From positions 1 through 64,000 of the IMG/VR virus record IMGVR_UViG_3300043446_003513: a stretch of DNA of 64,000 nucleotides, one strand, 5' to 3'. The translations under genes were made by a program, and so were the position numbers. This document shows, piece after piece, positions 25,643 through 54,222 of the stretch. The notes below the pieces were generated by a model, which searched no databases, was not told the DNA's origin, and was given only the letters and a program-made list of their open reading frames with translations. Each line of letters starts with the position of its first letter. Position 1 is the first letter of the stretch. Source of the stretch: a virus.

Positions 25643-25726
25643 AGTTTTTCCTGGTCAACTGGCTTGACAAGGGTTGTCCGCCAATGTTATGATTGTAGTT
25701 CGTTATCTCTAAAGGAGGAAATGCCA

Positions 25727-26302
25727 ATGGAGAATATCAAACAAAGTTTCAGTGATGTTGTACATAACTGGACTGTGATAACAATGATAGCATTATTTTT
25801 GTTTTCAACCAGCCCAGTAGTAAAATTTCCAGCTGAAGCTTCTGTAGTAAGACCCAGAATTGTTGTGCAGGAAAAAACTGCAGAACAAATCAAGAAAGAA
25901 ACCTTAGAAAAGTACAGCAGTACTGTTTATGGAGAATGGGATCAGCTTAGCGATTTTGAACTTAAGGAATTGTTATTGTTGATCGGATTCGAAGGAAGTG
26001 CCCTTAAAACGGCATGGGCTATTGCTAAGCGGGAGTCTAACGGACGACCAATGGCTTACAATGGTAACAGGAAAACTGGAGACAGTTCCTACGGAATTTT
26101 TCAGATTAATATGTTGGGAAACCTCGGCATTGATCGTAAAGAAAAATTTGATTTAAAGTCGAATAAAGAATTATTCGATCCAGTTAGAAATGTTGAGATA
26201 ACGTACTACATGACCGATGGCGGTAAAGATTGGTCAGCCTGGAAGGGACTTACCCCAAGGGCACAGGAATGGCTAGAAAAATTTCCTGACAAAGAAAAGT
26301 AG
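25727..26302 (+). CDS. Lytic transglycosylase (SLT/lysozyme-like) with N-terminal hydrophobic segment
   Basis: AWAIAKRES, SYGIFQIN, LFDPV.N, GKDWSAW; RBS aaggagg at 25712. Confidence 0.85.
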   Translation: MENIKQSFSDVVHNWTVITMIALFLFSTSPVVKFPAEASVVRPRIVVQEKTAEQIKKETLEKYSSTVYGEWDQLSDFELKELLLLIGFEGSALKTAWAIAKRESNGRPMAYNGNRKTGDSSYGIFQINMLGNLGIDRKEKFDLKSNKELFDPVRNVEITYYMTDGGKDWSAWKGLTPRAQEWLEKFPDKEK

Positions 26303-26307
26303 GAGAT

Positions 26308-26523
26308 ATGCAACAGATACAATATGTATCTAAATATTTAGCCCTAGCAGAAGAAGGCCTTGTATCAAGAATGGACTGTCCAATTGATCAAGGTCTTCTT
26401 TTTCCTAATTTAGATAATGATGATAATATATTTTTGTATTGCATTTCATGTTCTTATAAAAAAAATATTGGACTAGATTTATATAATAAGATTAAAGAAA
26501 AGGTAGAAGAAAATAATGAGTGA
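26308..26523 (+). CDS. Small Zn-ribbon-like protein
   Basis: CPID...CISC. Confidence 0.6.
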   Translation: MQQIQYVSKYLALAEEGLVSRMDCPIDQGLLFPNLDNDDNIFLYCISCSYKKNIGLDLYNKIKEKVEENNE

Positions 26524-26731
26524 AAATAATCAAGAGATGGAAAATCTGGAAGAAAATCTTCCAATGGTAAATTATATTATGCTTCACAGAATTTATGATT
26601 TATTAACTCTTATTGCAAACAAGCTGGTTGGACCAGAAGATGTATCTAAAATGGTTTCATATCATGATCAAGGATACCTGCTTGGACCTATGCCGTCTTT
26701 TGTTCCTCCGTCTCAAGGAGAAGTTGATTGA
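26516..26731 (+). CDS. Hypothetical protein
   Basis: Overlapping ORF in the same operon. Confidence 0.65.
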   Translation: MSENNQEMENLEENLPMVNYIMLHRIYDLLTLIANKLVGPEDVSKMVSYHDQGYLLGPMPSFVPPSQGEVD

Positions 26732-26756
26732 CTTTAAAATATATATATTTTATACT
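26728..26756 (+). promoter_or_regulatory. Sigma70/SigA-type promoter
   Basis: TTGACT-N17-TATACT. Confidence 0.75.
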
Positions 26757-26761
26757 TGTTT

Positions 26762-26843
26762 AACGAGTAGAGCAAAGCTCCTCGTTCGGCATCTCAAGAT
26801 GCTACTAAGTCCCAGTTGAATCCGCCTTTAACTGGGACTTTTT
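26762..26843 (+). ncRNA. Candidate ~80-nt sRNA of three hairpins ending in an intrinsic terminator
   Basis: No ORF between promoter and terminator; stems aacgag/ctcgtt, ggcatc/gatgct and aagtcccagtt/aactgggactt followed by a T run. Confidence 0.55.
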
Positions 26844-26879
26844 ATATGCTTTATATTAATTTAATTGTATAATTGATAT

Positions 26880-27149
26880 ATGCTAAGACACAGAATAGTG
26901 GAGCTAACATCTACTCCAGCTTTAATGACAACTCACGAACCAGTAGACAGACTTAATGTTTTATCTATTCAAAACGTGATGATGACTGGATTTGCTTATT
27001 TAGGAAATTCTAATGTGTCTACAACAACATATGGACATAAATTATATCCAGGCCAAAGTTTTACCATAGAACTTGCTCCAAATGATCGTGTGTGGGCTGT
27101 TGGAGATGCTGGAGTAAGCGTTGCAATATTTAATTTGGACATAGGATGA
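26880..27149 (+). CDS. Hypothetical protein, leaderless
   Basis: TATAAT-N6-ATG. Confidence 0.65.
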   Translation: MLRHRIVELTSTPALMTTHEPVDRLNVLSIQNVMMTGFAYLGNSNVSTTTYGHKLYPGQSFTIELAPNDRVWAVGDAGVSVAIFNLDIG

Positions 27150-27781
27150 GCCAACCAAGAATACGAATTACAACTGCACCATTAGATCCATCATCTATAA
27201 TTGCGGCGTATACATCTACAATAAAACATTTGGTTAAAAGCGATTATGATGGAACAATAAATAAAGGCCAGGCTGTCTATGTTACTGGCTCAACTGGTCA
27301 ATCTGGCACAAACATGTTAGTTAATAGGGCAAGCAATAACATTGAAATGACTTCATCAAAAACTATGGGGCTTTTAGAAACAAGTCTTTCAAAAAATGAA
27401 ATTGGCTATGTTGTTACAGAAGGGCTGCTTGCTGGATTAGATACTTCTAGTGCTGGTCAGGCTGGAGATCCAGTTTGGCTTGGAGTAGATGGAAATTTAA
27501 TTTATGGATTAACAAATAAACCAGTAGCGCCAGCTCATTTAGTTTTTATTGGAATAGTGACTCGCAAACAACAAAACAACGGTGAAATATTTGTTAAAGT
27601 TCAAAATGGTTTTGAGTTAGAAGAACTTCATAATTTAGTTTTAAACGGCAAAGCAGAAGGAGATATGATTAAGTGGGACGGAACTAAATGGATTAACTTT
27701 CATGGCGCCACGGGATCATTTATATCAACAGATAATAAAACAGTTATAGTAACTAATGGTATAATTACATCTATTGTCTAA
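27146..27781 (+). CDS. Putative virion decoration/fibre protein
   Basis: TINKGQAVYV, GYVVTEGLLAGLDT, GEIFVKVQNGFELEELHN and VTNGIITSI are structural-type motifs. Confidence 0.55.
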   Translation: MSQPRIRITTAPLDPSSIIAAYTSTIKHLVKSDYDGTINKGQAVYVTGSTGQSGTNMLVNRASNNIEMTSSKTMGLLETSLSKNEIGYVVTEGLLAGLDTSSAGQAGDPVWLGVDGNLIYGLTNKPVAPAHLVFIGIVTRKQQNNGEIFVKVQNGFELEELHNLVLNGKAEGDMIKWDGTKWINFHGATGSFISTDNKTVIVTNGIITSIV

Positions 27782-27797
27782 TAGAATAGGATACAAA

Positions 27798-27983
27798 ATG
27801 GATAAAAGATTTAACCCAGAATTAAGAAGAAATGTTGCAGAAAGCATTCCATGCATACACATGAATTCTATGTCTTTGGCTGACAGAACACTAAAAACAA
27901 TTGTTAGATATCTAAAAGATGCTCAAAGCAGAGGGCTTACAACTATTGATCAAGTTTTGAGTGACATGGAGAGGGAAGACTAA
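27798..27983 (+). CDS. Hypothetical protein
   Basis: ORF; start moved to ATG 27798. Confidence 0.5.
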   Translation: MDKRFNPELRRNVAESIPCIHMNSMSLADRTLKTIVRYLKDAQSRGLTTIDQVLSDMERED

Positions 27984-29017
27984 TCGCAATGGTCTTTTCT
28001 GTTATAAACATATAGATCAACAAACTCTTCTATTGGAAATGGCTGTTCGTCATCATCTGAAAAAGTAAATCTATTTTGCTTTGAAATAAGATCATGATTT
28101 CCAGATTTTAAAACATAAATATTTGTATCTTTTTTAAGAATTCTTTGTTCGTCAATTGTTTCCTTGGTGGCAAACAACATGCCACGCCATTCCTTATTTA
28201 AAAACCCATCCTTTTCAATTTCTGCAATTTTTTTCATAAAATCTTCATCAGACAATGAGCTTTCCATATCTGTCCATTCTTGCGGAATTGGGGCTGATAA
28301 AAAATGTCTTACATAATATTTTTTACCTTTTATTGGAAATACAGCGTGGGGAATGTCTGTTCTAAACAATAATCCATCTCCAGCTTCCATTTTATATGTA
28401 ATTGGATCGTCTACATAATAACAAGTCTTTTCGTCTCCAACTTGATTTATATAAGAAGTTTTTTCAGCATTTTCTATATCAATAAACTGAATTTCTCCGC
28501 CTTCATAATCATCGTTAATATAAATATTGTAATTAAATATTTGTGGAGAAGGAGTAATCCATCTTCTTTTATCTAAATGATAATCCATTGATAAAAATTT
28601 TGTTGGATTTGTATTTAAAGATTCTGCAATCAATAAATCTGGATACTGCCACCCTACAATATTTTTTTTATTATCAAAAAATTCTTCAAAATTTGATGGA
28701 ACAGTTTTGCTATCTGCAAATGAATCTACATAATTACTGTCCCATAAATTTTCTTTATAATATTTAATTGCATCCCAAAAAGAATCTGTTGTTTCTTTTA
28801 TAAAATATGCCCCATCAGAGTCAGAGTGCATCCAGGAAGTATCTTCAACAGGGTAAACTTTTGAATAGTAACCCCATGGTTTCCAATTTACCCATGAACT
28901 AAAAAAATCTACTTTTTCTGTTTTACTTTTTTTAATTATTTCATAAAGTTTATTTGGGTTGCTAACAGCATTTTTAATTAAAAGAATTTCTTTTCCTAGT
29001 TCAATGTATTCTTTCAA
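27980..29017 (-). CDS. 2OG-Fe(II) oxygenase
   Basis: YHLD, YINDDYEGGEIQF, PHAV; resembles 7885..8718. Confidence 0.82.
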   Translation of the reverse strand: MKEYIELGKEILLIKNAVSNPNKLYEIIKKSKTEKVDFFSSWVNWKPWGYYSKVYPVEDTSWMHSDSDGAYFIKETTDSFWDAIKYYKENLWDSNYVDSFADSKTVPSNFEEFFDNKKNIVGWQYPDLLIAESLNTNPTKFLSMDYHLDKRRWITPSPQIFNYNIYINDDYEGGEIQFIDIENAEKTSYINQVGDEKTCYYVDDPITYKMEAGDGLLFRTDIPHAVFPIKGKKYYVRHFLSAPIPQEWTDMESSLSDEDFMKKIAEIEKDGFLNKEWRGMLFATKETIDEQRILKKDTNIYVLKSGNHDLISKQNRFTFSDDDEQPFPIEEFVDLYVYNRKDHCD

Positions 29018-29294
29018 GACTCTATCTCATTTTCTTTGTTTGGCCAAGCCAAAACAATAAATGTAATTATTGAAAAAGTTACCGCTAATATACTTACAAT
29101 TATCATAATAAAATTATACAATATTTTTATTTTTGTGACAATTACACTCACAAATAGCCTTTTTGTTATTCCAGTCTATATATGACCACCTACATTCTTC
29201 ATGTAGCTCATCCATACACCACCCAAATTTTCTTATTTTTATAGACATGCGCTTATAGTATCATATTGTGGTATAATTTTGTAGGAGGAAACAC

Positions 29295-29435
29295 ATGGGA
29301 AGAGATCATTTTAAAAAAGTATTTTTTTCACCATACTTTCAATCCAACCATTATAAAAATGAAACTCCTGGCGGAAAGATAGAAAAAAAAATCGAGAATT
29401 GGTTTAAAAAATTTTTTAAAAAGGATGAAAAATAA
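29295..29435 (+). CDS. Small basic hypothetical protein (46 aa)
   Basis: RBS aggagg; MGRDHFKKVFFSPYF...; stop overlaps the next ATG. Confidence 0.55.
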   Translation: MGRDHFKKVFFSPYFQSNHYKNETPGGKIEKKIENWFKKFFKKDEK

Positions 29436-30238
29436 TGTTTTATGACAGACCAGACTGTATTAAATTGGCGGAAAAAATATTTTTGTTTAAAAATGCTTTA
29501 CCCAAAGAATTAATTGATCATTTAAATAAAGCATATATGGAAATGGATCAATCTACACTAGAATATGAAGATACTTTAATAGAATGGTATTCAAATAAAG
29601 TTGCTACAGAAATGCCAACTCCTAGAATTCATGAGGCCTGGGAACTTATTAGTGATATTTTATATCCAGAATATATTCTTCACCCTTCAGTAAATGTTTT
29701 AGCTGTAAAGCCAGGGGATGGCGGTATGTTTGTTCACGCAGATAGCCCAGGTCGAGGATGCGAAGATATGCTTACGCAACTTGATGAATTTAGCACATGT
29801 TGCATTATTGATTATGGTTTAGTAATGTATCTTGGAGAATGGACTGGAGGGGCTATATTTTATCCCCAGTTAAATCCAGATGGAACACCTAAGATGCATG
29901 AAAATGTTCAAGAAGGATGTTTTGAATATACTCCAGAAATTGGAGATATAATTATTCATAGTGCTCATTCTCCATATGAACATGGAGTAAGAGAAGTTGA
30001 ATCTGGTACAAGGTTTGCATACTCTAACTTTGTTTTAAGAATGGAAGATAATCCTGGATCATTTTATACTTATAAAACTCCAGAGTATTACGAACAACTT
30101 GGTGAAAAAGAAGATGGATTTTTAAAGAGATGGATTATTCCTTTATACCAGAGCGATGTTTCATATAAGCTCAGAAAAGAATTCGGTAAAGAAATTCCAG
30201 ATCTTCCAACTAAAGATCAGCTATTAAATAATAAATAA
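29435..30238 (+). CDS. 2OG-Fe(II) oxygenase
   Basis: MFVHAD, YLGEWTGGAIFYP, YEHGV, GTRF. Confidence 0.87.
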   Translation: MFYDRPDCIKLAEKIFLFKNALPKELIDHLNKAYMEMDQSTLEYEDTLIEWYSNKVATEMPTPRIHEAWELISDILYPEYILHPSVNVLAVKPGDGGMFVHADSPGRGCEDMLTQLDEFSTCCIIDYGLVMYLGEWTGGAIFYPQLNPDGTPKMHENVQEGCFEYTPEIGDIIIHSAHSPYEHGVREVESGTRFAYSNFVLRMEDNPGSFYTYKTPEYYEQLGEKEDGFLKRWIIPLYQSDVSYKLRKEFGKEIPDLPTKDQLLNNK

Positions 30239-30314
30239 GTGCGAAATTTAGTGTCGCGGCGGCAGAGAACAAACATACCCCATATAATTCATATAAGCCC
30301 ATTAGAGAGACTTT

Positions 30315-30464
30315 CTAGAATAGAGTAGGGTCTTCCTCTATGTCGTCATCATATACGTCGAATGTTTCCTCAAATAGGTCAGCGGCATCATTTACTTGAT
30401 CAATAACGAACCATAATAGGAATCCAAATAGACCTACAAGAGCGACGGGCAGAAAGCGTTTCAT
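30315..30464 (-). CDS. Small membrane protein with acidic tail (49 aa)
   Basis: MKRFLPVALVGLFGFLLWFVID...DDDIEEDPTLF; ATGA overlap with speD. Confidence 0.5.
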   Translation of the reverse strand: MKRFLPVALVGLFGFLLWFVIDQVNDAADLFEETFDVYDDDIEEDPTLF

Positions 30465-30850
30465 AATAGCTCATTTCCTATTACTTCAGTCTTAAATCCA
30501 TCTTCTCTATCAAATAGAACATAATCAATAGAACTAACGTCAAAGGCATTTCTAAATATTGTAAGCACTTTATCCAAATCTAGCTTGCCACAAGTATATA
30601 GATCAAATTGAACCAAAGAAGGATCCATCTCGTCCCATATATGAAATGCTATATGACTAGTTTCGATCATTACTATGGCTGTTAGCCCTTTATTCCCCGC
30701 CTTGTCTACATAACTTGCAAATGGACCTTTTATGATCTTCATATCGATATCATTTACTAGCTTAGTGAGAAAATCGATACCCTCTTCTTCGGTATTCATT
30801 GGATTATGTACTTTTGCATTTATAAGTAAGTGCTTGTGATATATCATCAT
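30461..30850 (-). CDS. speD: S-adenosylmethionine decarboxylase proenzyme
   Basis: GLTAIVMIETSHIAFHIWDE and QFDLYTCG motifs. Confidence 0.85.
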   Translation of the reverse strand: MMIYHKHLLINAKVHNPMNTEEEGIDFLTKLVNDIDMKIIKGPFASYVDKAGNKGLTAIVMIETSHIAFHIWDEMDPSLVQFDLYTCGKLDLDKVLTIFRNAFDVSSIDYVLFDREDGFKTEVIGNELL

Positions 30851-31112
30851 CTTCCGTTTCTACATCAAATATATTCTAGTCGACTATAATTTTAGATTAT
30901 ATAAAATGTTATATATATTTTTTATAAGTATATCTGGGGATTTAGATTTTTAGGAAAGCCCCCCTACCCCCCAAGTTTTTTCTTCTTGGAAAGATAGAGA
31001 AAGCTACATCTGGTACATTTGAGTTCCTAGTGTAAGCCCCCACAAACCAAAGTAAGTATAACATTATAAAAATTTTTCTGTCAAACTACTACAAATATTG
31101 TATAATGGTTTT

Positions 31113-31676
31113 ATGCAGCCAACAATAATAAAAAATTTTATTAGTAAAGACACAGCTTATTATTTAAATAATTATTTTAGGCCTTTGGTTGAAATAAATC
31201 CTAATGGTTTACTTAATGTTCCTCTTACTGCTGGAGACAATGGACTTGGATTTTCTTGCAAAGATCCAGCAATAAAAGAATCAAATATTTCACTTGATAT
31301 AGTGACTTTAATTGTTGAAGCAATTGCACATAGGTTTAATTTGCCAAAAAATAGAGTATCAATTAGAAGCTGTAACTATCAAGTGCTGGTTGAAGGTCAA
31401 GAAATTGGTTATCATTCTGATAATCGTGGAGCATATCGAAATAAAATGAAAAACGATGGTTGGTCTGCCCTTCTTTATTTGGATGATCAGTATACTGGTG
31501 GAGAAATTTTGTTCTATGAATTAGATGAAAATGGCAAAGAAATATCTAAATCTTATCACCCCACACCAGGAACATTAATCTATTTTAAAGGCGATGAAGA
31601 ACATTGTCATTCTGTTAATAAAGTGATAAATGGAGAAAGACCAAATCTTATCTTATTTTTTGATGTAAATGATTAA
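31113..31676 (+). CDS. 2OG-Fe(II) oxygenase, leaderless
   Basis: YHSD, YLDDQYTGGEILF, CHSV, GER; TATAAT-N6-ATG at 31113. Confidence 0.87.
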   Translation: MQPTIIKNFISKDTAYYLNNYFRPLVEINPNGLLNVPLTAGDNGLGFSCKDPAIKESNISLDIVTLIVEAIAHRFNLPKNRVSIRSCNYQVLVEGQEIGYHSDNRGAYRNKMKNDGWSALLYLDDQYTGGEILFYELDENGKEISKSYHPTPGTLIYFKGDEEHCHSVNKVINGERPNLILFFDVND

Positions 31677-31808: not shown

Positions 31809-31824
31809 TGTGAGCCATATCACA
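31809..31824. promoter_or_regulatory. CRP/GlxR-type site
   Basis: TGTGA-gccata-TCACA, perfect consensus. Confidence 0.55.
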
Positions 31825-32209
31825 CACTTTTTCTAAATTATTTTTGAGAATGTCCGAATTGTTAGCATTTTAGATTTGATTTTGTCGGTGGCTTCTGCCA
31901 GACTTGAGGTATCAAGATAAAGAAAGGAAGTCGCAAAATGAGCAACATGAAGCGATATATCGAGGAAGTCGAAGGCGAAACCTTTGACCAAGCACTAGAG
32001 GCTCTGGTAGCCTTTTATCATCAAGAATTAGAACTAGAGAAAGAAGGTAAGTAATATGTTTGATATAGAGAACGATAGCGACTACTGGAGTAGTCAATTA
32101 CCCGCCTCCGTTTATCGCAACGGATACCTTAGCGAAAAGCGCAAGAAAGAAATACGCGAAGCAGTTGCTCGCGTACAAGGTAGAACACTAGAGAACGGAA
32201 ATAAATAAT

Positions 32210-32416
32210 ATGGCTAAATTATATTCAGTAGAAAGTTTGCTAATTGGCAAACGATACGATTCCGCTAGCCTCAATGGTGTAATCGTAAATGCTACCGAAA
32301 CCGATAAAGTTTGGTTTGGTAGTGGATTAGATTCTTATCTCGTAGAGATTAGAGAGGATGGTAGTTTCATCAACACCTTCCGCTATGTTGCCGTAAAGAA
32401 TGGAGAGCTAGTATGA
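32210..32416 (+). CDS. Early hypothetical protein, paralog of 33320..33517
   Basis: MAKLYSVESLLIGKRYDSASL...RYVAV. Confidence 0.75.
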   Translation: MAKLYSVESLLIGKRYDSASLNGVIVNATETDKVWFGSGLDSYLVEIREDGSFINTFRYVAVKNGELV

Positions 32417-32578
32417 AAATAACCTACACACTTTGGATGGGCTCTAGAATTATAGGTAACGGATTAGTTGCCTATAAAGTAGAGGAAATAAACGAGATGA
32501 TAGATGAACTAAAGAAACTAGATAACCTAATCGAGCCACACGCAACAATTCTAAAAGTAGAGAACGGAGATAACTAAA

Positions 32579-32758
32579 GTGTATTCATTCGACACCATCA
32601 ACGATTCAGAATATAAATATGAGAGCATTCAGGATTATTATCCGCTAGAGGAATTGGTAGAGGAATCAGACCCTATAGACCCTATCGAATACTACCTTTC
32701 CGACATAGAGCAAGAGCAACGCGATTGGGAAGAAGACGACGGGTGGATGTTCTTATGA
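32579..32758 (+). CDS. Very acidic small early protein (59 aa)
   Basis: Manual translation from GTG; 20 D/E versus 2 K/R. Confidence 0.55.
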   Translation: MYSFDTINDSEYKYESIQDYYPLEELVEESDPIDPIEYYLSDIEQEQRDWEEDDGWMFL

Positions 32759-33319
32759 GAGCCCTAGTATTCCTAACCCTTGCCTCGTGGGTGTATCTGA
32801 ACTACCTATGGCTAAAGGCAAGGGCTAAGGGCTAAGGGCGGGCCGAGATCGGGTTACGGCACAATAATAAAAAATCCCAGAAAGGAAAATGAAATGAAAA
32901 TAGATCAATACGGAGTAATGCTAGACTTTGGCGATACGCTATATATCTCGTCATCGTGGTTAGGGGTTCTTAGCCTAGCTGTTGTGTATGGCGTGTATAG
33001 AGTAGTAAAATACTACTACCTCTAAAAAAGGGGAAAATATTCGTGTAACGCGTTCGGGCGTGTCGCCTGAACGCAAAACGGACAAATGGCCCACTCTTTT
33101 GAGGGGGCTTTTGTCCTATTATGTCCGATATTCAAAAATCCCTGAAAGTTTGACCATTTTACGGGCGTGTCGATTTGACAGACAAAACGGACATATAGGA
33201 TGTGACGCACACCACAAAAATATTTTTCAAGATGTCCGATTTGATAGCATTTCTAATTTGATAATGTCGGTGGGTTCGTGTATCGTAGTACCTATCAACC
33301 TAGAGAAAGAAGGTTCATC

Positions 33320-33517
33320 ATGGCAAACCTCTACACAGTAGAAGAATTGCTAGTTGGCAAGCGTTACAATTCTGCCAGCCTCGCTGGTGTTATCATCAGC
33401 GCAACAAAGACCGATAAGGTCTATTATCAAAACGCCGAAACCTATTTGGTAGAGGTGCGAGAAGATGGCGGATTTATTCGCCACCCTTATCGCTATGTAG
33501 CAGTTAGGGGGGAATAA
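33320..33517 (+). CDS. Early hypothetical protein, paralog of 32210..32416
   Basis: MANLYTVEELLVGKRYNSASL...RYVAV; RBS gaagg. Confidence 0.75.
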   Translation: MANLYTVEELLVGKRYNSASLAGVIISATKTDKVYYQNAETYLVEVREDGGFIRHPYRYVAVRGE

Positions 33518-33639
33518 CATGGCAGATATGTTTATTTTCCGCATGGATTCAGAGGGAGCGGGCTGGGCTAATTTCTCAGACGCTACCCCTGAGGAAATCC
33601 TAAATTTGGAAATCGGTCTATATAATGAAATGGGGAAAA

Positions 33640-33807
33640 ATGCTAACTAGAAAACACTTTCAGGCAACGGCAGAAATTCTAAATACCCACCGCAAATTTA
33701 TACACCCCGCCGCTTATCAAAGTCTAATCAAAGAATTTGCCAAAGTTTATTCGGAGGAAAATCCCTCGTTTGATCCCGTCAAATTTGCCAAGGTAGTTTA
33801 TAAATAA
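33640..33807 (+). CDS. Early hypothetical protein
   Basis: MLTRKHF...ENPSFDPVKF; similar to the C-terminus of 53289..53738. Confidence 0.65.
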   Translation: MLTRKHFQATAEILNTHRKFIHPAAYQSLIKEFAKVYSEENPSFDPVKFAKVVYK

Positions 33808-33855
33808 ATGTCGGTGGCTTCCGCTATAATCTAACCAGTAACGAAAGGAAACGAA

Positions 33856-34053
33856 ATGAATAAATACAAAGTGTTCTTAGAAACTTATGTTGAGGCAGAG
33901 GATTATCTCAAAGCCGCTTTCGCGGCGTTTCATAAGTTAGACCCATTGGGTGATGTTCAGTTTCAGTTTGAGATTGTAGATGTTCATCACTTTACCAGCG
34001 AAGGCTGGAAATCCCCCACGGGAATTGTTGAGATGTTAGAGAGGTATCGCTAA
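33856..34053 (+). CDS. Early hypothetical protein
   Basis: RBS aacgaaaggaa and its own promoter. Confidence 0.7.
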   Translation: MNKYKVFLETYVEAEDYLKAAFAAFHKLDPLGDVQFQFEIVDVHHFTSEGWKSPTGIVEMLERYR

Positions 34054-34608
34054 AATGTTTTTTGTAATCGTATTTGGTTTGGGTGTATTGACTACACTTC
34101 TCGGAACAGCTCTCGCATTATTGTTTTTTGATTTGGAGGACTAATGAAAAAATGTAGTTTGTGTCGCAAATATCGAATTCTAAAAAATGCGTATTTGTGT
34201 GCGGAGTGTAATCAGCTTATTCGCGGCGACCTCAAGTAGTAAAAAAGCCGAATATTTTCGTGTAACGCGTTCGGGCGTGTCGCCCAGTATTTTGCGGCCT
34301 CTTAGATCTTGTTACGACACGAAAAAATATTTCCCCAAAACTTGATTATTGTCGGTGCGTTGTGCTATTGTTTTCCTATCAACAAAAGGAGCTCATATGC
34401 GTAACTGCGTTTATTGTAAAAAAGAAACCACCCTCTTTACCACCGACGACGGTGAGTACTACTACCCCGTATGTAACGAGTGTGGATAGGAGCCCACGTT
34501 TTTGCGGCCCCCAAGATCTGCTTACGGCGCAACACGCCGATTTCCTGAAATTTGGATAATGTCGGTGCGGTGTGCTATTATCTGCTTATCAACTACGAAA
34601 GGAAAAAA

Positions 34609-34779
34609 ATGGATAATCTCTTCGATTCCTACGACGGCTCTGACGAGGCTTGGGCTGACCCAGCTGAGCAGGAGGATTGGGTCGATACCGACCTTTTCTA
34701 CGAGAGCGTTTCTGATTCGGACGCCCTCATCTCTATCGGTTGGGGCACCGATGAGGACTACGGGTACTACGGGGAGTAA
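34609..34779 (+). CDS. Very acidic small early protein (56 aa)
   Basis: RBS acgaaaggaa; 18 D/E and no K/R. Confidence 0.7.
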   Translation: MDNLFDSYDGSDEAWADPAEQEDWVDTDLFYESVSDSDALISIGWGTDEDYGYYGE

Positions 34780-34931
34780 TCCCCGCTAGGCCCACGTTTT
34801 TGGCGGCATTTTTTCTCTGTTACGGAGATCACAAAAAAATTCCTGGATTCTGTCCAGAAACGCCCAATTTTAGATTAGGTTATGTCGGTTAGCGATGATA
34901 CAATATACGCACCAACAACGAAAGGTAAAAA

Positions 34932-35225
34932 ATGGAACAACCGCTTATCAGCAAAATGCTTGACCACGCTATTGAGGCTATTCACTCTGATGATGTTACA
35001 GAATCTGCTCGTCGTATTATCAATACAGAATACGCAAATGTTGATGATAAGATTCGTGACCTCTTTGCTTACTCGCAAGAACTCTGCTCAATGTTCATCA
35101 CCAAATATCTTTGTGCTAACTACACCGATGAGCAAATCGAGCAACTACAAAATGATGTTGAGGAATATATGGGCTATCAACTCAGCGATGAAATTGAGCA
35201 ATTCCTACTTGCTGGGGGTGAGTAA
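34932..35225 (+). CDS. Early hypothetical protein
   Basis: RBS aacgaaagg; acidic. Confidence 0.7.
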   Translation: MEQPLISKMLDHAIEAIHSDDVTESARRIINTEYANVDDKIRDLFAYSQELCSMFITKYLCANYTDEQIEQLQNDVEEYMGYQLSDEIEQFLLAGGE

Positions 35226-35226
35226 T

Positions 35227-35439
35227 ATGGAGAATAAGTTTATTCACGAAACAACAGTTGTGTTTCAGCACGAAATCTCTCTTGATGAATTTTCAGAAAT
35301 TCTACAATATGGTGAGGAGCATATCAAATCAATGCTCGACACTATGGTGTATGAAATTTTCAAGTTGCGAGAAACTGAAGCCGAAGTAAACGAACACGGA
35401 ACCAAGGCGTTTTGTAGAATCAAGGAGGTGTCTCGATGA
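35227..35439 (+). CDS. Early hypothetical protein
   Basis: True start ATG 35227 (MENKFIH), following the previous stop. Confidence 0.6.
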   Translation: MENKFIHETTVVFQHEISLDEFSEILQYGEEHIKSMLDTMVYEIFKLRETEAEVNEHGTKAFCRIKEVSR

Positions 35440-35665
35440 GCTTAGAAACACTACAGTATCTTTGCGAAGTTTTCGATTGGTCAACTGATGTAGATAATGA
35501 AGGTCAACTAATTATTTACACGGGAATCTATAACTCGTAATGTTGGGAAGCCGCCCTTCGGGGCGGTGATCCCACTCTTTTGCGGGGTTTTTGATCGTGT
35601 TACGTAGTTATAGAAAATGTCCCTGCCATGTGGTAGAATAATCCCACCAAGAACGAAAGGCAACA

Positions 35666-36382
35666 ATGAAACTCAAACGCTCTAACGATAGGAAGGTCGC
35701 TAATGCGGTATCGAAAAACGGAAAAACACCCGCTATTGCTAATACTTTTGGGCTACCTGCTGGGAAGAATTTCTCATGTCCTGGCGCTACTAGCGTATGC
35801 GAAAGTGTCTGCTACGCAGGAAAGCTTGAAAAACTCTACAAAGGAGTAAAAAATAATCTTCTCCATAACTGGGAATTACTAAAAGACGCTGATTTTGATA
35901 GCATGCTCTTATTGCTTGACGATATGATTGTAGATTTCATTGATGATTGCACTAAGCGTAATGCGCCTAAATTATTCCGCATTCATTGGGATGGCGATTT
36001 CTTCTCCGATACTTATGCGTACGCATGGCGTGTAATTATTACTAATCACCCAGATGTTCAATTCTGGGTATACACTCGTGTAAAGTCTGCCGCCGAGATT
36101 CTTCAAGGCATTGAAAACTTATCTCTTTATTATTCTACCGATTCAGAAAATAAAGATATCGCTCAAGAATTATCTAATAAGGGCGTAAAGCTTGCATACC
36201 TTGCTACAACTTTTGCAATGGCAAAGGAAGACATGCTAAACCTTATCGGAAAGTCTGGTGTAAAGTGTCCTGAGAATAATAAAAAGATTCCGCTAATATC
36301 AGTCAACGGGTCTGCGTGTGTTACTTGCGGGCAATGCGTATATGAGCGTAACGATATTCTATTCTCCGCAACTAAAAAATAA
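35666..36382 (+). CDS. GP88-like Cys-rich phage protein
   Basis: CPGATSVCESVCYA, FRIHWDGDFFS, FWVYTR, ACVTCGQC. Confidence 0.75.
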   Translation: MKLKRSNDRKVANAVSKNGKTPAIANTFGLPAGKNFSCPGATSVCESVCYAGKLEKLYKGVKNNLLHNWELLKDADFDSMLLLLDDMIVDFIDDCTKRNAPKLFRIHWDGDFFSDTYAYAWRVIITNHPDVQFWVYTRVKSAAEILQGIENLSLYYSTDSENKDIAQELSNKGVKLAYLATTFAMAKEDMLNLIGKSGVKCPENNKKIPLISVNGSACVTCGQCVYERNDILFSATKK

Positions 36383-36671
36383 GGAAGGAAAAATAAATGG
36401 ATCAAGATGTAAAAGATTGGGAAGATCGTATAGAGCTCTCTCATATTGAACAATTAGAAAAGTTTGGCTGGTGTGTTTGCGAAGATACAAATGGAGAAGG
36501 CCAAATGGCAGAGGATTGCCCTCCTAATTAGGAGGGCCCACTATTTTGGGGGGTCTTGTCAAGTGTTACGGACATCACATTTATTTTCCTGGATTGCCTT
36601 TACAAATGTCGGTGGGGTCGAGTATAATATACCCATAACTTCATACAACTACTATCGAAAGGAAATGCCAC

Positions 36672-37091
36672 ATGGCAAGAGGTAAAGCAATAAATGTAAA
36701 GATTGCCACAGCAAAGGTAATCAAAGCACTAGAAACAAAGTTAGCACAAATCAAAAAAGACAAGGCTAACCAAAAATCTAACGAGGAAAAGTATAAGAAG
36801 GAAGTTGAGAAGTGGGGCAAAGAACTTGCCAAACTTGCGCTTACTAAAATTAGTAAGGCAGAAAATCTTTCTGCCACTACGCGATATAACAATGATGTTT
36901 ATATCAACTTTACTTTACCTGCTGGAACCATCACAGTACCTGATGAGCCCGAAAGAAATTTCGAGGTAATTTATGACCACAACTATCGTGAGATGGTAGA
37001 GGAAATTGAGAACGCAATTCGTATTCTCAAAATGACCGACGAGGAAACAGTAAGCACCTCAACTTACAACTCTATCGCTAAATATCTCTAA
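36672..37091 (+). CDS. Early hypothetical protein
   Basis: RBS cgaaaggaa; 139 aa; GC-rich hairpin follows at 37098-37126. Confidence 0.75.
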   Translation: MARGKAINVKIATAKVIKALETKLAQIKKDKANQKSNEEKYKKEVEKWGKELAKLALTKISKAENLSATTRYNNDVYINFTLPAGTITVPDEPERNFEVIYDHNYREMVEEIENAIRILKMTDEETVSTSTYNSIAKYL

Positions 37092-37144
37092 CTAGAATTG
37101 GGGAGGGACACGGACACCCTCCCCAAATATCCGCTAGGCGGTTT

Positions 37145-37273
37145 GGTGCTGAGCAACACCTAAGGTAAAAATGGCTACCTCACCTGAGTATGTGAAGGCT
37201 AAACTACTCACCAAGTGTATCTCCCAGTGCCATGGCGAGGGAGGCAGTTCCTGAGCATGAACTGAAACTGCTC
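37145..37273 (+). ncRNA. Tandem small H-type pseudoknot motifs (37178-37209, 37245-37273; degenerate copy at 37145)
   Basis: P1-CT-GAGYA-T-P1'-AAAC-TRCTC; P1 stems differ between copies but stay paired. Confidence 0.55.
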
Positions 37274-37296
37274 ACCACTACTAACAAAGGAAAGAA

Positions 37297-37557
37297 ATGG
37301 CAAACCGATATCGAGTAGAGATATTCGACGAAATGAAGTCAAACGATTTGACGATTTACTCAGATACAAATGTTGATAAGGATTTACTAACTGAAATGGT
37401 ATTTAGTAATATCAGCAAGTTTGAGGGAAATATCAGCGCATTCGTTTATGATAATGAAAAAAAGAAAAAGACAACTGTTCTAATCCTTCCTTGGGAAACT
37501 GTAAGAAACATCAACTCCAAAATTCGTTGGGGATATGAGGCGCTGGGTCTCTCCTGA
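37297..37557 (+). CDS. Early hypothetical protein
   Basis: RBS aaaggaaa. Confidence 0.7.
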   Translation: MANRYRVEIFDEMKSNDLTIYSDTNVDKDLLTEMVFSNISKFEGNISAFVYDNEKKKKTTVLILPWETVRNINSKIRWGYEALGLS

Positions 37558-37685
37558 GATCCAGTTGCCCACGTTTTTGTGGCCACATTTTATCTGTTAC
37601 GTACGCGATCAACATTCCCCAAAATAAGCTTTACAATGTCGTACCCTGCTGATATAATTCAACTAATCTAATCGAAAGGAAACCA

Positions 37686-38693
37686 ATGGCTCATAATCTC
37701 GAAGTCGAGAATGGCGAAGTTGCTTTTGCGCTACGCGGAACCCCCGCTTGGCACAATCTCGCCAATCGTATTTTCTCACAAGATGAGGAAGTATCTACAC
37801 AAACAATGCTATCAGAAGCGAAACTATCTAATTGGGATGTTCGCCTATCTCCAGTAACCGACCACATTCCTAGCGAATGGAATGATGTTAGCGGGGCACA
37901 ATATGTTCTTCGTACTAACCCATTCAATCAAGGAACTGATGTTCTATCCGTAGTTGGTTCTCGCTATCAAGTAATTCAGAATGAAGATTTATTTTCGTTT
38001 GCTGATAATGTTCTTGACGGGGATTCCCGTTGCGCTTGGGAATCTGCTGGTTCTCTAAAGAATGGTAAAGTTGTATTCGGCTCTCTTACTGTTCCCCGCG
38101 AAATGGTGTTAGACCCACAAGGTGCTAACGATACAACTAAACTGTATCTTATCGTTTGGACTTCACACGATGGTTCTGTTGCGGTTCAGGCAGCAATTAC
38201 TCCTGTTCGTGTTGTATGCCAAAATACTCTCAATCTTGCTATGCGTAACGCTAAACAATCATTCAAGATTCGCCACACGCAGACCGCTGACGGCAAGATT
38301 CAAGTTGCCCGCGAAACCCTCGGACTTACATTCGGATATTTTGATGAGTTTGAGAAACAAGCGCAGGAACTATTCAAGCAAGAGATTTCCGACAAGGATT
38401 TTTCTAAACTGCTAACCACTATCTATCCTAAGCCAGAGGCTGACGCTAAAAATGCTCTCAAGCGTTGGGAAAATAAAGTCGTATTGCTTGATGACCTTTA
38501 TTTCAATTCACCTACCAATGCTAACATCAAGGGCACAAAGTGGGGAGCGTTCAATGCGCTAACTGAACGCCTTGATTATTTCCGTTCAACTCGTAAGAGC
38601 AATACGGAATCTAAATGGGCTTCCGCTTCAGGGTTTGACCCAATCATTACTGCCGAAAAGAATAAGATTCTTCAGGTTGTAAAAGCGTTCTAG
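37686..38693 (+). CDS. DUF932/DUF945-family phage-plasmid protein
   Basis: MAHNLE, PAWH.L, VGSRY..IQNED.F, ESAGSL..G..VF, SHDGS, TPVRVVCQNTL, IRHT, GT.WGAFNALTE..D. Confidence 0.88.
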   Translation: MAHNLEVENGEVAFALRGTPAWHNLANRIFSQDEEVSTQTMLSEAKLSNWDVRLSPVTDHIPSEWNDVSGAQYVLRTNPFNQGTDVLSVVGSRYQVIQNEDLFSFADNVLDGDSRCAWESAGSLKNGKVVFGSLTVPREMVLDPQGANDTTKLYLIVWTSHDGSVAVQAAITPVRVVCQNTLNLAMRNAKQSFKIRHTQTADGKIQVARETLGLTFGYFDEFEKQAQELFKQEISDKDFSKLLTTIYPKPEADAKNALKRWENKVVLLDDLYFNSPTNANIKGTKWGAFNALTERLDYFRSTRKSNTESKWASASGFDPIITAEKNKILQVVKAF

Positions 38694-38699
38694 TACGCA

Positions 38700-38726
38700 A
38701 CTCCTGGGTATGAGTATAAACTGCCT
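38700..38726 (+). ncRNA. Further copy of the pseudoknot motif, directly 5' of tRNA-Asp
   Basis: actc-CT-GGGTA-T-gagt-at-AAAC-TGCCT. Confidence 0.5.
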
Positions 38727-38730
38727 TCCT

Positions 38731-38803
38731 GGCCCATTAGCTTAGCGGTTAAAGCGCTACCCTGTCACGGTAGAGATCGTCGGTTCAAATCCGATATGGG
38801 TCG
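38731..38803 (+). tRNA. tRNA-Asp(GTC)
   Basis: Acceptor GGCCCAT/ATGGGTC, anticodon loop CT-GTC-AC, T-loop GGTTCAAATCC; CCA not encoded. Confidence 0.92.
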
Positions 38804-38920
38804 CCCCCAAAATCATGGGTGCAAAAATGCTTTTACGCAACCCAAAAATATTTTCCCGAAATGCTTGATATTGTCAGTGGCCTCGTGTATACTTCTGCCA
38901 ACAGAACGAAAGGAATAAAT

Positions 38921-39382
38921 ATGGACGAGTTTGTAGAGTTATCATATGATGAGTGGGTAGATACTTATAGGCCTATCAAAAATCATATTGACCCAAATGC
39001 TTCTATGGACGGCTATATGTTTGAGACGTATGATTCAGAGAAAGACTTTGTAAAGCAATCTTTCCCCGAATATATTTGGACTTATGGCGATGGTGATGAC
39101 GGCGGTATGTATATTTGGAATGGTTATGGAATTGTAAATCGCATTGGTTATTTTGTAACTGAGATTCCTTGCCCGCCAAAAACTACTATTCAGGTATTGG
39201 TATCTCATAACTGGTATTACTGCGAGAGCTGCGGTTCAGAAACAGAAGACCCAGATAATCTAATTAGAGATTCATTTCAGGATATTGACTTAGATAAGTG
39301 TCCTAACTGTGCTACCGCTGAGGAGCTAACAACCGCTGGCTTTACTCAAATAAGAGAAGGGCTCTGGAGCGTGGGTCAGTAA
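38921..39382 (+). CDS. Early hypothetical protein with Zn-ribbon
   Basis: RBS aacgaaaggaa; CESC...CPNC. Confidence 0.7.
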   Translation: MDEFVELSYDEWVDTYRPIKNHIDPNASMDGYMFETYDSEKDFVKQSFPEYIWTYGDGDDGGMYIWNGYGIVNRIGYFVTEIPCPPKTTIQVLVSHNWYYCESCGSETEDPDNLIRDSFQDIDLDKCPNCATAEELTTAGFTQIREGLWSVGQ

Positions 39383-39460
39383 TGACCCACAGGATCGTGG
39401 CGAGACTTGTGCTTGTCAGTGGCAACTGCTATACTACACCCAATCAACGAAAGGAAGGCA

Positions 39461-39883
39461 ATGTACCAAGACAATAACCCAATTGTCGATAAACCGATAC
39501 CGACATTGGAAGAGCAATACAAGCAAGAAATGGAATTAAGATATGGTAGCGAAATTACTATATTAAACAATAAGTTACACGACCGTAATCAACGCATATC
39601 TGATTTCAACACTAACATCAACGCTGTTCGTGATTATCTAGTTGAGAATTATGATGAACTAGAAGGTCACGCTGATTCTATCGCCGACCTTCTTGGCGTA
39701 GATTTAACTAAAACAACTACTTTCACAGTTGTCGCAACTTACACAGTTGAAATTACTCACGACATTAATCATTTGCCAACTGACTTTGATTTCGCAATTG
39801 GTTGGTCTAATGGACTTGAATACAATGGTGAAGGCGACATTGAAATTATTGATTCAGACATAACTGAGATTCACGAGGTATAA
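39461..39883 (+). CDS. Early hypothetical protein
   Basis: RBS aacgaaaggaag; start ATG 39461. Confidence 0.7.
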   Translation: MYQDNNPIVDKPIPTLEEQYKQEMELRYGSEITILNNKLHDRNQRISDFNTNINAVRDYLVENYDELEGHADSIADLLGVDLTKTTTFTVVATYTVEITHDINHLPTDFDFAIGWSNGLEYNGEGDIEIIDSDITEIHEV

Positions 39884-40113
39884 TGTTCTATCGACTTAAG
39901 GCAAAGAATAAGGTCTCATTTAATGGGGCCTTATTCACCGCAGACATAAATGGACTTGACCCTGATAACTTTAACCCAAAAGAATATATATTTGAAATTG
40001 GAACGGGAAAGGTGGAAAAAGTTTCACGCTTGATTTCTCAATACAATTTAGATATACTTGTCGAATCGGACTACGCACCAAATCAATATGCGTATCTAGT
40101 GGAAGGGGTATAA
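39883..40113 (+). CDS. Early hypothetical protein
   Basis: Translationally coupled ORF. Confidence 0.65.
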   Translation: MFYRLKAKNKVSFNGALFTADINGLDPDNFNPKEYIFEIGTGKVEKVSRLISQYNLDILVESDYAPNQYAYLVEGV

Positions 40114-40258
40114 TGTCTGACAGTTATCAAGAAGGATACGCAGACGGCTATAAGTTTGCTCGTGATGAAATCATTGAGAAACTAAGAGAAATAGATATTG
40201 ACGATATCGATGGCTGGCTATTAGATAAGTTATCTGACATGATTGAGAGAAACGACAT

Positions 40259-40453
40259 ATGACAGAAGAATGGATCGGCTGCGATAAATGTTCAGTAGCA
40301 CAGGCTAGGTATTTATTGAGAGGTGTTGAAGGGGATTTATATTTCTGCCACCACCACTATAACAGTTTCAAGGGTGGCCTAGACAAATGGTCCTTTGAAA
40401 TGATAGAATTGAACAAGAAGGAAGAAACACCACAACTAGAAAAGGCGGAATAA
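40259..40453 (+). CDS. Small Zn-binding protein
   Basis: CDKC...LYFCHHH. Confidence 0.65.
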   Translation: MTEEWIGCDKCSVAQARYLLRGVEGDLYFCHHHYNSFKGGLDKWSFEMIELNKKEETPQLEKAE

Positions 40454-40454
40454 T

Positions 40455-40859
40455 ATGGGAGACAGAGCAAACTTTGGATTTGTGCAGCCTAACGGTCACA
40501 CAATTGTATTGTATGGGCACTGGGCTGGTGAGAATATGCTAGCTAATTTAGCAGATGCAGTTAATGCAGCTCGTCCTCGTTGGGGCGATTCATCATATGC
40601 GACACGTATTGCAATTAGTCAATTAATTGGCAATGAATGGAACGGTGAGCTTGGCTGGGGTTTGGCCGTAGATGAGATTCTAGACAATGAGCACCACATT
40701 GCAATTGTTGATTTTGAACAGCAAATATTTTCTCTTCATCCTGAGGATGAGCACGTCAACAAGGATAACAAGGTTAGGGGAATGCGTAATGAACCTAAAT
40801 TCACCATGGACCTAGATTCATTTGTGAATAAATATGGAGACGTTGTAGTTGGCGTTTGA
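40455..40859 (+). CDS. Early hypothetical protein
   Basis: MGDRAN...LYGHWAG...RWGDSSYATRI. Confidence 0.7.
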   Translation: MGDRANFGFVQPNGHTIVLYGHWAGENMLANLADAVNAARPRWGDSSYATRIAISQLIGNEWNGELGWGLAVDEILDNEHHIAIVDFEQQIFSLHPEDEHVNKDNKVRGMRNEPKFTMDLDSFVNKYGDVVVGV

Positions 40860-40885
40860 CATATTAGCCGAAGTTATTCTATAAT
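40856..40885 (+). promoter_or_regulatory. Consensus SigA-type promoter
   Basis: TTGACA-N18-TATAAT. Confidence 0.8.
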
Positions 40886-40889
40886 ATGA

Positions 40890-41038
40890 ATAGGTCTTCC
40901 AGGGCCTATTCATTATAGGTAAGGTGCCGCTACTAGGTCTATCACCGAGTGGCTAAGTAAGGCAAGCGTTCTTCCTTTCGTTTCGCTAGCAGCCTACCAC
41001 ATTAATCCCCGCAGCTTATGTTGCGGGGATCTTATTTT
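40890..41038 (+). ncRNA. Candidate ~150-nt sRNA with a loop-exposed anti-RBS sequence
   Basis: Own promoter and terminator (atccccgca/tgcggggat, 41005-41030); no credible ORF; loop ttcttcctttcgttt closed by gcaagcg/cgctagc. Confidence 0.65.
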
Positions 41039-41099
41039 GCCCATAAAAAATAGGGTAACAACTTTGTCTTACGGAGTCAAGTTCAATTTTCCCGAAATT

Positions 41100-41115
41100 T
41101 GTGATAACGATCACA
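41100..41115. promoter_or_regulatory. CRP/GlxR-type site
   Basis: TGTGA-taacga-TCACA, perfect consensus. Confidence 0.55.
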
Positions 41116-41178
41116 CGAAATTGGGTGGACAATTGTCAGTGTCTTGATATATAATTATGCCATAACGAAAGGAAAATT

Positions 41179-41427
41179 ATGGAAGAAGTATATGTTGAAA
41201 GAGTAGAATCTTTAGTTAACTATATAGAGATACACTTAACTAGTTTACAGCAAGACCTAGATAAACTATCTGAGCAAATGGAAAAGTATGATGAGGATTC
41301 TAAGGCTCACCGCTCTATGGATGAAGAGTATCTTTATTTAAGTGGACAGATTACTGCCGCCAGCCATTTATTGTCGGTGGTCAATGATACAATGGTCACC
41401 TGGAAAAGGGAGAAAAATAATGGCTGA
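41179..41427 (+). CDS. Early hypothetical protein
   Basis: RBS aacgaaaggaa. Confidence 0.7.
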   Translation: MEEVYVERVESLVNYIEIHLTSLQQDLDKLSEQMEKYDEDSKAHRSMDEEYLYLSGQITAASHLLSVVNDTMVTWKREKNNG

Positions 41428-41659
41428 TGTTTCATTCTTAGAAAATGAAAACCAAATGGTAATTGACGCAGAATTACAAACAATTGCCGAACAACTACTA
41501 GAGGACTGGCTCTATGAAAATTTGAATGAGGGTCAATTTTATGCTGATTGGCGTATTGCTTCTATGTCTGATAGTAATTACTTAAAAGGTAGATTTAATC
41601 AATTCTATAACTTACAGCCTGATAGCGATTATTATATTGAGTGGGATGAGGAGAAGTAA
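41420..41659 (+). CDS. Early acidic hypothetical protein
   Basis: Start ATG 41420 after gggag. Confidence 0.65.
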   Translation: MADVSFLENENQMVIDAELQTIAEQLLEDWLYENLNEGQFYADWRIASMSDSNYLKGRFNQFYNLQPDSDYYIEWDEEK

Positions 41660-42440: not shown

Positions 42441-42540
42441 GATCTTAAGGGCAAGAAAAATTGCTTACGTATTTATGTCAAAATGCCCTTGACGGGTTTG
42501 CAAATTCAATATATAATATTAATATAGCGAAAGGATAACA

Positions 42541-42982: not shown

Positions 42983-43223
42983 TGGAGACTACTAAGGCCC
43001 ATATCTCAGACGTTTTAAAGAAGGTCCAGTCCCTTATGGACTCAGGATCCCTGCACGAGCTGGATGAGGCCTATAGCCTCATCTCAGATTTAATTAATGA
43101 TATCGAGATGTCCTAATTGGGGGCGGAAAAACCCAGTTACGGAAATAACTAAATATAGGCGGAAAGCTGTTTACAAATCCTTGTAAATGGTATATAATTA
43201 AAAAGATCATGAAAGGATCTAAA

Positions 43224-53938: not shown

Positions 53939-54222
53939 TTTGCACCTTCCAGTTCACATCTTACGCCGTAAGACTCTATAGTATTTTTTATCATCTCAAT
54001 ATATTCAATTACTTTTACTCTATGTGATCCATCATATTTTGCAAAATTGCTTTCGTATAATCTTATAGCTAAAAATTCTGGATATTTAACTATATCCATT
54101 TTTAAATCTGGCACAGGACACCTTAATTCTCTTACTCTTTTAGCCATTTCTTTTGTATAAAAAACTGGCTTGTTTGGCTCACCAGTCCATTGGTTTATGC
54201 CATATTTAAAATGATTATCCAT
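53935..54222 (-). CDS. Hypothetical protein
   Basis: Coupled ORF. Confidence 0.6.
   Translation of the reverse strand: MDNHFKYGINQWTGEPNKPVFYTKEMAKRVRELRCPVPDLKMDIVKYPEFLAIRLYESNFAKYDGSHRVKVIEYIEMIKNTIESYGVRCELEGAK

Follow-up and report, generated by a model that had tools for sequence, protein, structure and literature searches.

Predicted PafBC-type promoters in one gene block of an uncultured actinophage

The virus record IMGVR_UViG_3300043446_003513 is a phage genome of 106,679 bp with a guanine-cytosine (GC) content of 35.3% and direct terminal repeats, and it is estimated to be complete. The window analyzed here is its first 64,000 nucleotides (nt). Nearly all genes of the phage lie on the minus strand, and the sole divergent block is a plus-strand arm at 25.7-44 kb, whose part at 32-44 kb has a GC content of about 41% as opposed to about 33% in the rest of the genome. 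Within this arm, 13 co-oriented plus-strand promoters are found between positions 31883 and 41393, all of which exhibit the sequence TGTC exactly 12 nt before the -10 hexamer. An initial annotation of the window had listed these sites and related them to PafBC, the main DNA-damage activator of actinobacteria, for which single-stranded DNA is the activating signal. Its coordinates hold for all 13 sites, and a pattern scan of the window reproduced its count of ten sites with TGTC(G/A)GTG. The copy at 41372, which had been described as part of a coding sequence, indeed lies within the last 56 nt of the open reading frame (ORF) 41179-41427. The promoters are as follows.

31883-31904, plus strand: box promoter 1, TGTCGG box and deviant -10 (CAGACT), before gene 31938-32054
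33265-33286, plus strand: box promoter 2, strict motif, -35-like hexamer matching at 5/6 positions, before gene 33320-33517
33809-33830, plus strand: box promoter 3, strict motif with TATAAT and no -35, before gene 33856-34053
34350-34371, plus strand: box promoter 4, strict motif, extended -10
34560-34581, plus strand: box promoter 5, strict motif, extended -10
34883-34904, plus strand: box promoter 6, TGTCGG core intact and last box position deviant, before gene 34932-35225
35618-35639, plus strand: box promoter 7, degenerate box TGTCCC, before the GP88-family gene
36607-36628, plus strand: box promoter 8, strict motif, -35-like hexamer matching at 5/6 positions, before gene 36672-37091
37637-37658, plus strand: box promoter 9, degenerate box TGTCGT, near-consensus -35 and -10, before the DUF932 gene
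38872-38893, plus strand: box promoter 10, strict motif, before gene 38921-39382
39414-39435, plus strand: box promoter 11, strict motif, extended -10, before the gene starting at 39461
41134-41155, plus strand: box promoter 12, strict motif, before gene 41179-41427
41372-41393, plus strand: box promoter 13, strict motif inside the 3' end of ORF 41179-41427, before gene 41420-41659

The full pattern TGTCRGTG-N8-TAnnnT has nine matches in the window, all on the plus strand between 33265 and 41393, where 0.02 would be expected, and none of 100 shuffled windows reached this number. No further copy occurs elsewhere in the complete 106,679-bp genome, of which both strands were scanned. The tenth TGTCRGTG site, at 31883, has CAGACT as its -10 and hence falls outside the full pattern, while the relaxed pattern TGTC-N12-TAnnnT adds the sites at 34883, 35618, and 37637 in the same block, where the box is degenerate. 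A GAAAGGA-type ribosome site and a start codon follow 25-45 nt 3' of each box promoter, and a terminator-like hairpin is located upstream of several of them. Together, the hairpins, promoters and ribosome sites therefore mark the block as a string of short transcription units. Elsewhere, the phage uses boxless promoters of the simple extended -10 or -35/-10 type, which identifies the box as an added, block-specific element.

The arrangement is conserved across a family of uncultured phages. At least 591 IMG/VR relatives of the GP88-family gene were identified, and the best 80 loci (1.28 Mb) served as the family sample. Of the strict-motif matches in this sample, 477 lie on the gene strand and two on the opposite strand. 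In each of five related genomes, which measure 104-116 kb and of which four are estimated to be complete and one to be 85% complete, 4-10 strict copies are confined to one strand of a single arm of approximately 5-12 kb, and a reversed control pattern gave zero matches in these five genomes. With TGTC-N12-TAnnnT as the sole anchor, 815 unique gene-strand sites were retrieved, in which the next two positions are A/G in 97% and G in 91%, followed by W, S, and S, with T-G directly before the -10. The 128 opposite-strand sites with the same anchor do not show such a base preference. Furthermore, the promoter of the orthologous GP88 genes contains TGTCRG in 66 of 69 relatives, whereas the two bases after it vary. 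Due to these strand-restricted preferences and the conservation of the GP88 promoter, the conserved unit is TGTC-R-G, ten bases and TAnnnT, plus the extended -10. A very strict consensus search revealed at least 120 further IMG/VR stretches, and a few contigs with 11-14 copies of the box have almost no genes in common with the phage in the stretch compared.

In Mycobacterium smegmatis, chromatin immunoprecipitation sequencing identified tGTCgg(N10)tA(N3)T as the motif of PafBC. Its 3' part is the SigA -10 element, its 5' part at -23 to -28 is read by the helix-turn-helix of PafB via R46 and R50, and PafBC-dependent promoters have no -35 element (PMC8635444). This RecA-NDp promoter type is also known in Streptomyces (PMC5087735). 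If the phage -10 hexamer is set at -12 to -7, its TGTC begins at -28, and the geometry corresponds to the PafBC motif to the nucleotide. The equation of box and spacing with the PafBC/RecA-NDp motif, which the initial annotation had proposed, is thus supported by comparison with tGTCgg(N10)tA(N3)T (PMC8635444). Regarding the GTC core and the tGTCgg element, ten of the 13 sites read TGTCRGTG and one more reads TGTCGG. The distance from the box to tA(N3)T is the same at all 13 sites and is shared by the 477 family sites. Regarding the -35 element, 68% of the family sites score at most 3/6 against TTGACA, and 17% score at least 5/6 (approximately 1% expected). Judged by sequence, the 13 sites thus appear to be real promoters of one gene block (31.9-41.4 kb), each built as a PafBC-type promoter.

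Cellular counterparts of the box were found in a sample of 301 genomes from one actinobacterial class, which was chosen via a WhiB match in a metagenome-assembled genome (MAG) labelled "uncultured Aquiluna." WYL-domain proteins are present in 299 of these 301 genomes, a tally that includes seven genomes flagged as unpublished (G007, G022, G027, G030, G036, G241, and G279) and used for no other claim. A closer set consists of nineteen genomes of 1.3-1.5 Mb (loci with 44-52% GC), which may represent freshwater lineages with reduced genomes. Their recA loci were located by protein family and therefore independently of the motif, and the box precedes recA in 19 of 19 loci, at a distance of approximately 170-190 nt from the start codon in the four loci where it was measured. 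The commonest form of the recA box begins TGTCAGTGG, which is also the phage family consensus, and a comparison of the phage box with the cellular recA box gave agreement at nine of nine positions. Strict boxes number 4-9 in four of five small genomes, as opposed to 0-2 for the control pattern, and 0-9 in each of the complete cellular genomes of 1.3-1.4 Mb. Other genes behind cellular boxes encode a PHP/DnaE polymerase, a DUF6504 protein, a LysM protein, an OGG-type glycosylase, a C5 methylase and CarD, and the strict box in the Aquiluna MAG lies before an RNase T-type exonuclease gene.

Two adjacent WYL genes are present in each of three small genomes examined. In genome G127, this pair encodes proteins of 327 and 307 amino acids, and behind it lie tatA, tatC and the genes for a lipid kinase and a helicase, an order which, the kinase gene aside, matches the mycobacterial order pafB-pafC-tatA-tatC-helY. 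Among solved structures, the pair is closest to PafB (4e-39) and PafC (9e-22) of M. smegmatis in the polymerase complex 7P5X, and the DNA-reading arginines R46 and R50 are kept in the sampled actinobacterial PafB. The presence of pafBC, on which the initial annotation had made its proposal depend, is supported for the sampled actinobacteria by the syntenic PafB/PafC of the small genomes.

Two further observations concern the cellular boxes. The recA promoter continues with TCGAACAG in 13 of the loci L123-L136 (all but L132), where the TCGAAC directly after the -10 is an actinobacterial SOS half-site, and control by PafBC and LexA would overlap at one recA promoter in those genomes. In the 1.4-Mb genome G127, seven strict boxes lie within 25 kb (G127:C1:443341-467143; L088, L092, L096, L100, L104, L107, and L108) and precede genes for a trypsin-like protease, two TPR proteins, a C5 DNA methylase and an OGG-like glycosylase as well as small genes without assigned function. 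This cluster may constitute a PafBC-controlled stress or defence island.

A second element accompanies the box in the phage. Five sites of the form TGTGA-N6-TCACA (at most one mismatch) were found in the window, all of which lie in the arm and 26-66 nt before a box:

31809-31824, no strand assigned: CRP-like palindrome (10/10), centre 66 nt before box 1
33201-33216, no strand assigned: CRP-like palindrome (9/10), centre 56 nt before box 2
34818-34833, no strand assigned: CRP-like palindrome (9/10), centre 57 nt before box 6
36564-36579, no strand assigned: CRP-like palindrome (9/10), centre 35 nt before box 8
41100-41115, no strand assigned: CRP-like palindrome (10/10), centre 26 nt before box 12

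Across the family, 448 of 781 boxes (57%) have a CRP-like site within 130 nt, as opposed to 8% expected, and the distances peak at 26, 36, 46, and 56 nt, so that each step corresponds to one helical turn; a smaller group lies at 41 nt. Conversely, the 39 cellular boxes examined all lack such a site. CRP-type proteins of approximately 230 amino acids are encoded in all five small actinobacterial genomes. No CRP-type helix-turn-helix was found in the phage genome, which speaks against a phage-encoded CRP as the reader of the palindromes. The box promoters are composite promoters: in addition to the box they have an extended -10, and many of them also a -35-like hexamer or an upstream CRP-like site, and they may not be strictly PafBC-dependent. 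In many other family units (L002-L081), only the left half of the palindrome is kept (TGTTACG), and a TTTCCC..AAA box comes after it. The window has no match to TCGAAC-N4-GTTCGA, the actinobacterial SOS box, even with up to two mismatches allowed, and wiring of the block to SOS/LexA is thereby ruled out.

The phage has no nucleotide match among 50,697 phage records. Its proteins resemble those of actinophages (DUF932, GP88-family and tail-fibre-like proteins), and its tail-fibre-like protein has domains in common with Mycobacterium phages. The genes used for orientation are the following.

35666-36382, plus strand: GP88-family gene (PF17338), anchor for collecting the at least 591 related IMG/VR contigs
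37686-38693, plus strand: DUF932 gene, sharing approximately 50% identity with genes that Streptomyces phages such as Jay2Jay carry in their terminal-repeat arm
54215-54523, minus strand: WhiB-like gene, a marker of actinobacterial hosts that lies outside the promoter set

WhiB is confined to actinobacteria and serves as a marker of their phages (PMC10202952, PMC10914622). An integrase of the tyrosine or serine type was not found in the phage genome, and the phage is therefore probably lytic; a temperate phage with damage-triggered induction is improbable on the same grounds. Taken together, WhiB, the GC content of 35%, the missing integrase and the terminal repeats indicate an uncultured actinophage of an actinobacterial host and not a mycobacteriophage. 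Likewise, identity as a mycobacteriophage or Streptomyces phage is ruled out by the 35% GC and the lack of a nucleotide match in the phage collection. The mycobacterial host implied by the initial annotation was not borne out, as the phage has 35% GC and its relatives are uncultured IMG/VR contigs, and the host appears to be an actinobacterium outside Mycobacterium. Searching for this host via WhiB gave no assignment, with genome matches only on contigs of 38-42% GC in MAGs labelled Bacteroidia, Aquiluna, and Saccharibacteria. These WhiB-bearing contigs (L083, L084, and L085) are probably phage contigs swept into the MAGs by binning. The one in the Aquiluna MAG has a GC content of 40% in a MAG of approximately 52-55% GC; it is therefore probably a mis-binned phage contig and allows no statement on the host.

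A scan of the 12 larger genes of the arm against PHROGs, Pfam and PDB gave nothing informative beyond GP88, DUF932, one unnamed PHROG and weak zinc-ribbon-type matches, and the literature found assigns no function to DUF932. Judging from form alone (small ORFans, short units, and many promoters), the genes of the block would be early genes, while the anti-defence role proposed for them in the initial annotation is unsupported. A search for WYL domains gave no match in the complete phage genome, two complete relatives and three further contigs with the box. A phage-encoded WYL activator, which the initial annotation had considered as an alternative located outside the window, is therefore not supported. 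In the left part of the arm (25664-31676), no regulators were recognized. This region contains an SLT-type lysozyme gene (25664-26302), 2OG-Fe(II) oxygenase genes at 31098-31676 and, on the minus strand, at 27980-29017, and an AdoMet decarboxylase gene on the minus strand (30461-30850). The block of box promoters also includes a tRNA-Asp gene (38730-38806), which is flanked by the DUF932 gene and box promoter 10.

Promoters without a box are found in both parts of the genome. The plus-strand arm contains boxless consensus -35/-10 promoters at 40856-40885, 42489-42517, 43170-43198, and 25664-25693, of which the one at 40856 matches the consensus at 12 of 12 positions and has no ORF behind it. 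The arm therefore has two promoter classes, which may correspond to two classes of genes that differ in timing. The long minus-strand operons have few promoters; these lie just above genome positions 55706, 58412, 60386, 100867, and 104899 and are boxless extended -10 promoters (TGnTATAAT) without a clear -35.

It is probable that host PafBC acts at the box promoters by "sigma adaptation," with single-stranded DNA as the signal. The housekeeping RNA polymerase of the host would read these promoters with PafBC placed between the box and region 4 of sigma. As PafBC is activated by binding single-stranded DNA, the appearance of such DNA would switch on or boost the block, be it in the course of infection or after earlier damage to the DNA of the cell. 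The phage promoters would represent a stronger composite form of this promoter type, and their near-consensus extended -10, the occasional -35-like hexamer and the CRP-like palindrome make some basal PafBC-independent activity and a second host input likely. Binding by PafBC, its activation, the trigger, the timing and the host are all points that we infer. A more far-reaching version is conceivable, albeit doubtful: across this family of abundant actinophages, two global regulators of the host would be combined through the helically phased CRP-like site and the PafBC box, and the first block would fire only upon a metabolic state together with single-stranded DNA. In an infected streamlined cell, dozens to thousands of phage boxes would then outcompete the few PafBC promoters of the host, including those of possible defence islands, and the phage would be the first virulent one to use a WYL-type alarm activator of its host for a class of its genes.

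Several observations weigh against control by PafBC. The phage boxes are preceded by A/A, while the cellular ones are usually preceded by T. The phage -10 is near consensus (TATAAT) and has an upstream TG, whereas cellular boxes precede weak -10 elements such as TACCTT; given its strong -10, RNA polymerase may not need PafBC at the phage promoters at all. In fact, a -35-like hexamer with at least 4/6 matches is present at nine of the 13 promoters in the window, although PafBC promoters are defined by lacking a -35, and promoters with a degenerate box are kept at equivalent positions in the block (three sites). In view of the strong -10, the partial -35 and the decayed boxes, PafBC may boost transcription rather than license it. 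Moreover, the genomes used for the cellular comparison are a sample of one class which was reached via a probable phage contig.

The same features lend themselves to other explanations. Constitutive SigA promoters of the extended -10 (partly -35/-10) type may carry the box as a decoy or sink which draws PafBC, or polymerase loaded with PafBC, away from host boxes, so that the host damage response and PafBC-controlled defence genes would be blunted as the phage DNA multiplies. The near-consensus TGnTATAAT at most sites agrees with this, since plain extended -10 promoters evidently suffice elsewhere in the genome, as does the persistence of degenerate-box promoters and the presence of ten boxes in one phage genome as opposed to 0-9 in complete cellular genomes of 1.3-1.4 Mb. 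However, a decoy does not need single-nucleotide spacing, restriction to one strand and a place before every transcription unit. PafBC also did not bind its motif in vitro without polymerase (PMC6789036), and free boxes may therefore not titrate it, which leaves a decoy function unlikely. Alternatively, the box and perhaps the palindrome may be read by a phage protein unrecognizable by sequence, which would be produced from the plain SigA promoters of the arm or injected, similar to MotA in T4; the likeness of the phage box to the PafBC box would then reflect convergence or deliberate competition. There is room for such a factor among the 12 larger arm genes, which, bar GP88 and DUF932, belong to no informative family and include one weak zinc-ribbon match. 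The plain consensus promoters in the same arm could come first, and the combination of CRP-like site and box is phage-specific. It nevertheless seems improbable, as neither a WYL domain nor a CRP-type helix-turn-helix is present in the phage, the box equals the cellular recA box at all nine positions, and arrays of 11-14 boxes on contigs with almost no shared genes in the stretch compared fit a host factor better.

Conversely, the box could be a shut-off operator at which a host or phage repressor binds the spacer of strong promoters later in infection. Its position in the spacer of seemingly self-sufficient promoters would suit an operator, and the L5 stoperators of temperate mycobacteriophages are likewise repeated sites in one orientation. 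Neither an integrase nor a recognizable repressor was found in the phage, however, and the actinobacterial SOS box is absent from the window. Furthermore, sequence and spacing fit an activator site, and no repressor site of this kind is known to us, which makes an operator very unlikely. Activation by host PafBC thus remains the preferred reading of the box promoters.

If correct, this would mean that a virus without an integrase times its programme via an alarm activator of the host instead of a factor of its own or a host repressor. The block would also provide a natural set of strong and compact PafBC-responsive promoters. The findings point to possible crosstalk between damage sensing, cyclic AMP-type signalling and phage infection in very abundant freshwater bacteria. 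The idea is testable with existing mycobacterial tools, namely pafBC deletions and reconstituted polymerase with PafBC and single-stranded DNA. The literature search found no link of PafBC boxes to phage promoters, a text-string search for the box returned primers alone, and PafBC-type box promoters on a phage thus appear to have no describing paper among those found. A passage in PMC12848934 cites work as showing that pafBC affects mycobacteriophage resistance.

Inheritance of the trait from cultured actinophages with a DUF932 arm was rejected in view of the terminal-repeat arm of Streptomyces phage Jay2Jay (L258, 1-12000), which is boxless and has TTGTAT/TTGCAT-N17-TAGACT promoters after CGGACA-type boxes. 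"Cggaca...atagg" elements near window positions 33080-33200 resemble those of Jay2Jay, and the -10 of box promoter 1 is CAGACT.

Among known systems, the phage promoters are most directly comparable to the PafBC promoters of Mycobacterium, Streptomyces and other actinobacteria, with which they share the TGTC-R-G box at -28 to -23 and the 10-nt gap to TAnnnT (PMC8635444, PMC6789036, PMC5087735). Most sites of the phage family also have no clear -35. The same box also precedes recA and repair genes of the sampled actinobacteria. In contrast to PafBC promoters, they form arrays of 4-14 per genome before small genes without assigned function, on a virus without an integrase. They also differ from the cellular promoters in their near-consensus extended -10, in the -35-like hexamer of a subset and in the phased CRP-like site, which accompanies more than half of the phage family boxes as opposed to none of 39 cellular ones.

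LexA-controlled phage promoters such as those of coliphage 186 tum and GIL01 belong to temperate elements in which LexA repression serves induction. There as here, phage gene expression would be tied to a DNA-damage signal of the host via the site of a host regulator. The present phage, however, has neither an SOS box nor an integrase, and its regulator would be an activator.

The nearest phage parallel to sigma adaptation is provided by the T4 middle promoters, with a MotA box at -30 and AsiA ("sigma appropriation"; PMC8635444). Both systems comprise a class of phage genes with an activator box in place of the -35 and keep the housekeeping sigma factor of the host. While the two T4 factors are both phage-encoded and remodel sigma region 4, none was found in the present phage, and the box corresponds to the site of a host activator.

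Finally, the CRP-like sites resemble those of class I CRP promoters in Escherichia coli, where the site is centred near -61.5, -71.5, -82.5 or -92.5. In both cases, TGTGA-N6-TCACA precedes the core promoter at distances that differ by single helical turns. In contrast to class I promoters, the phage sites are combined with a PafBC-type box, and, assuming a transcription start 7 nt downstream of the -10, their centres would lie near -54.5, -64.5, -74.5, and -84.5.

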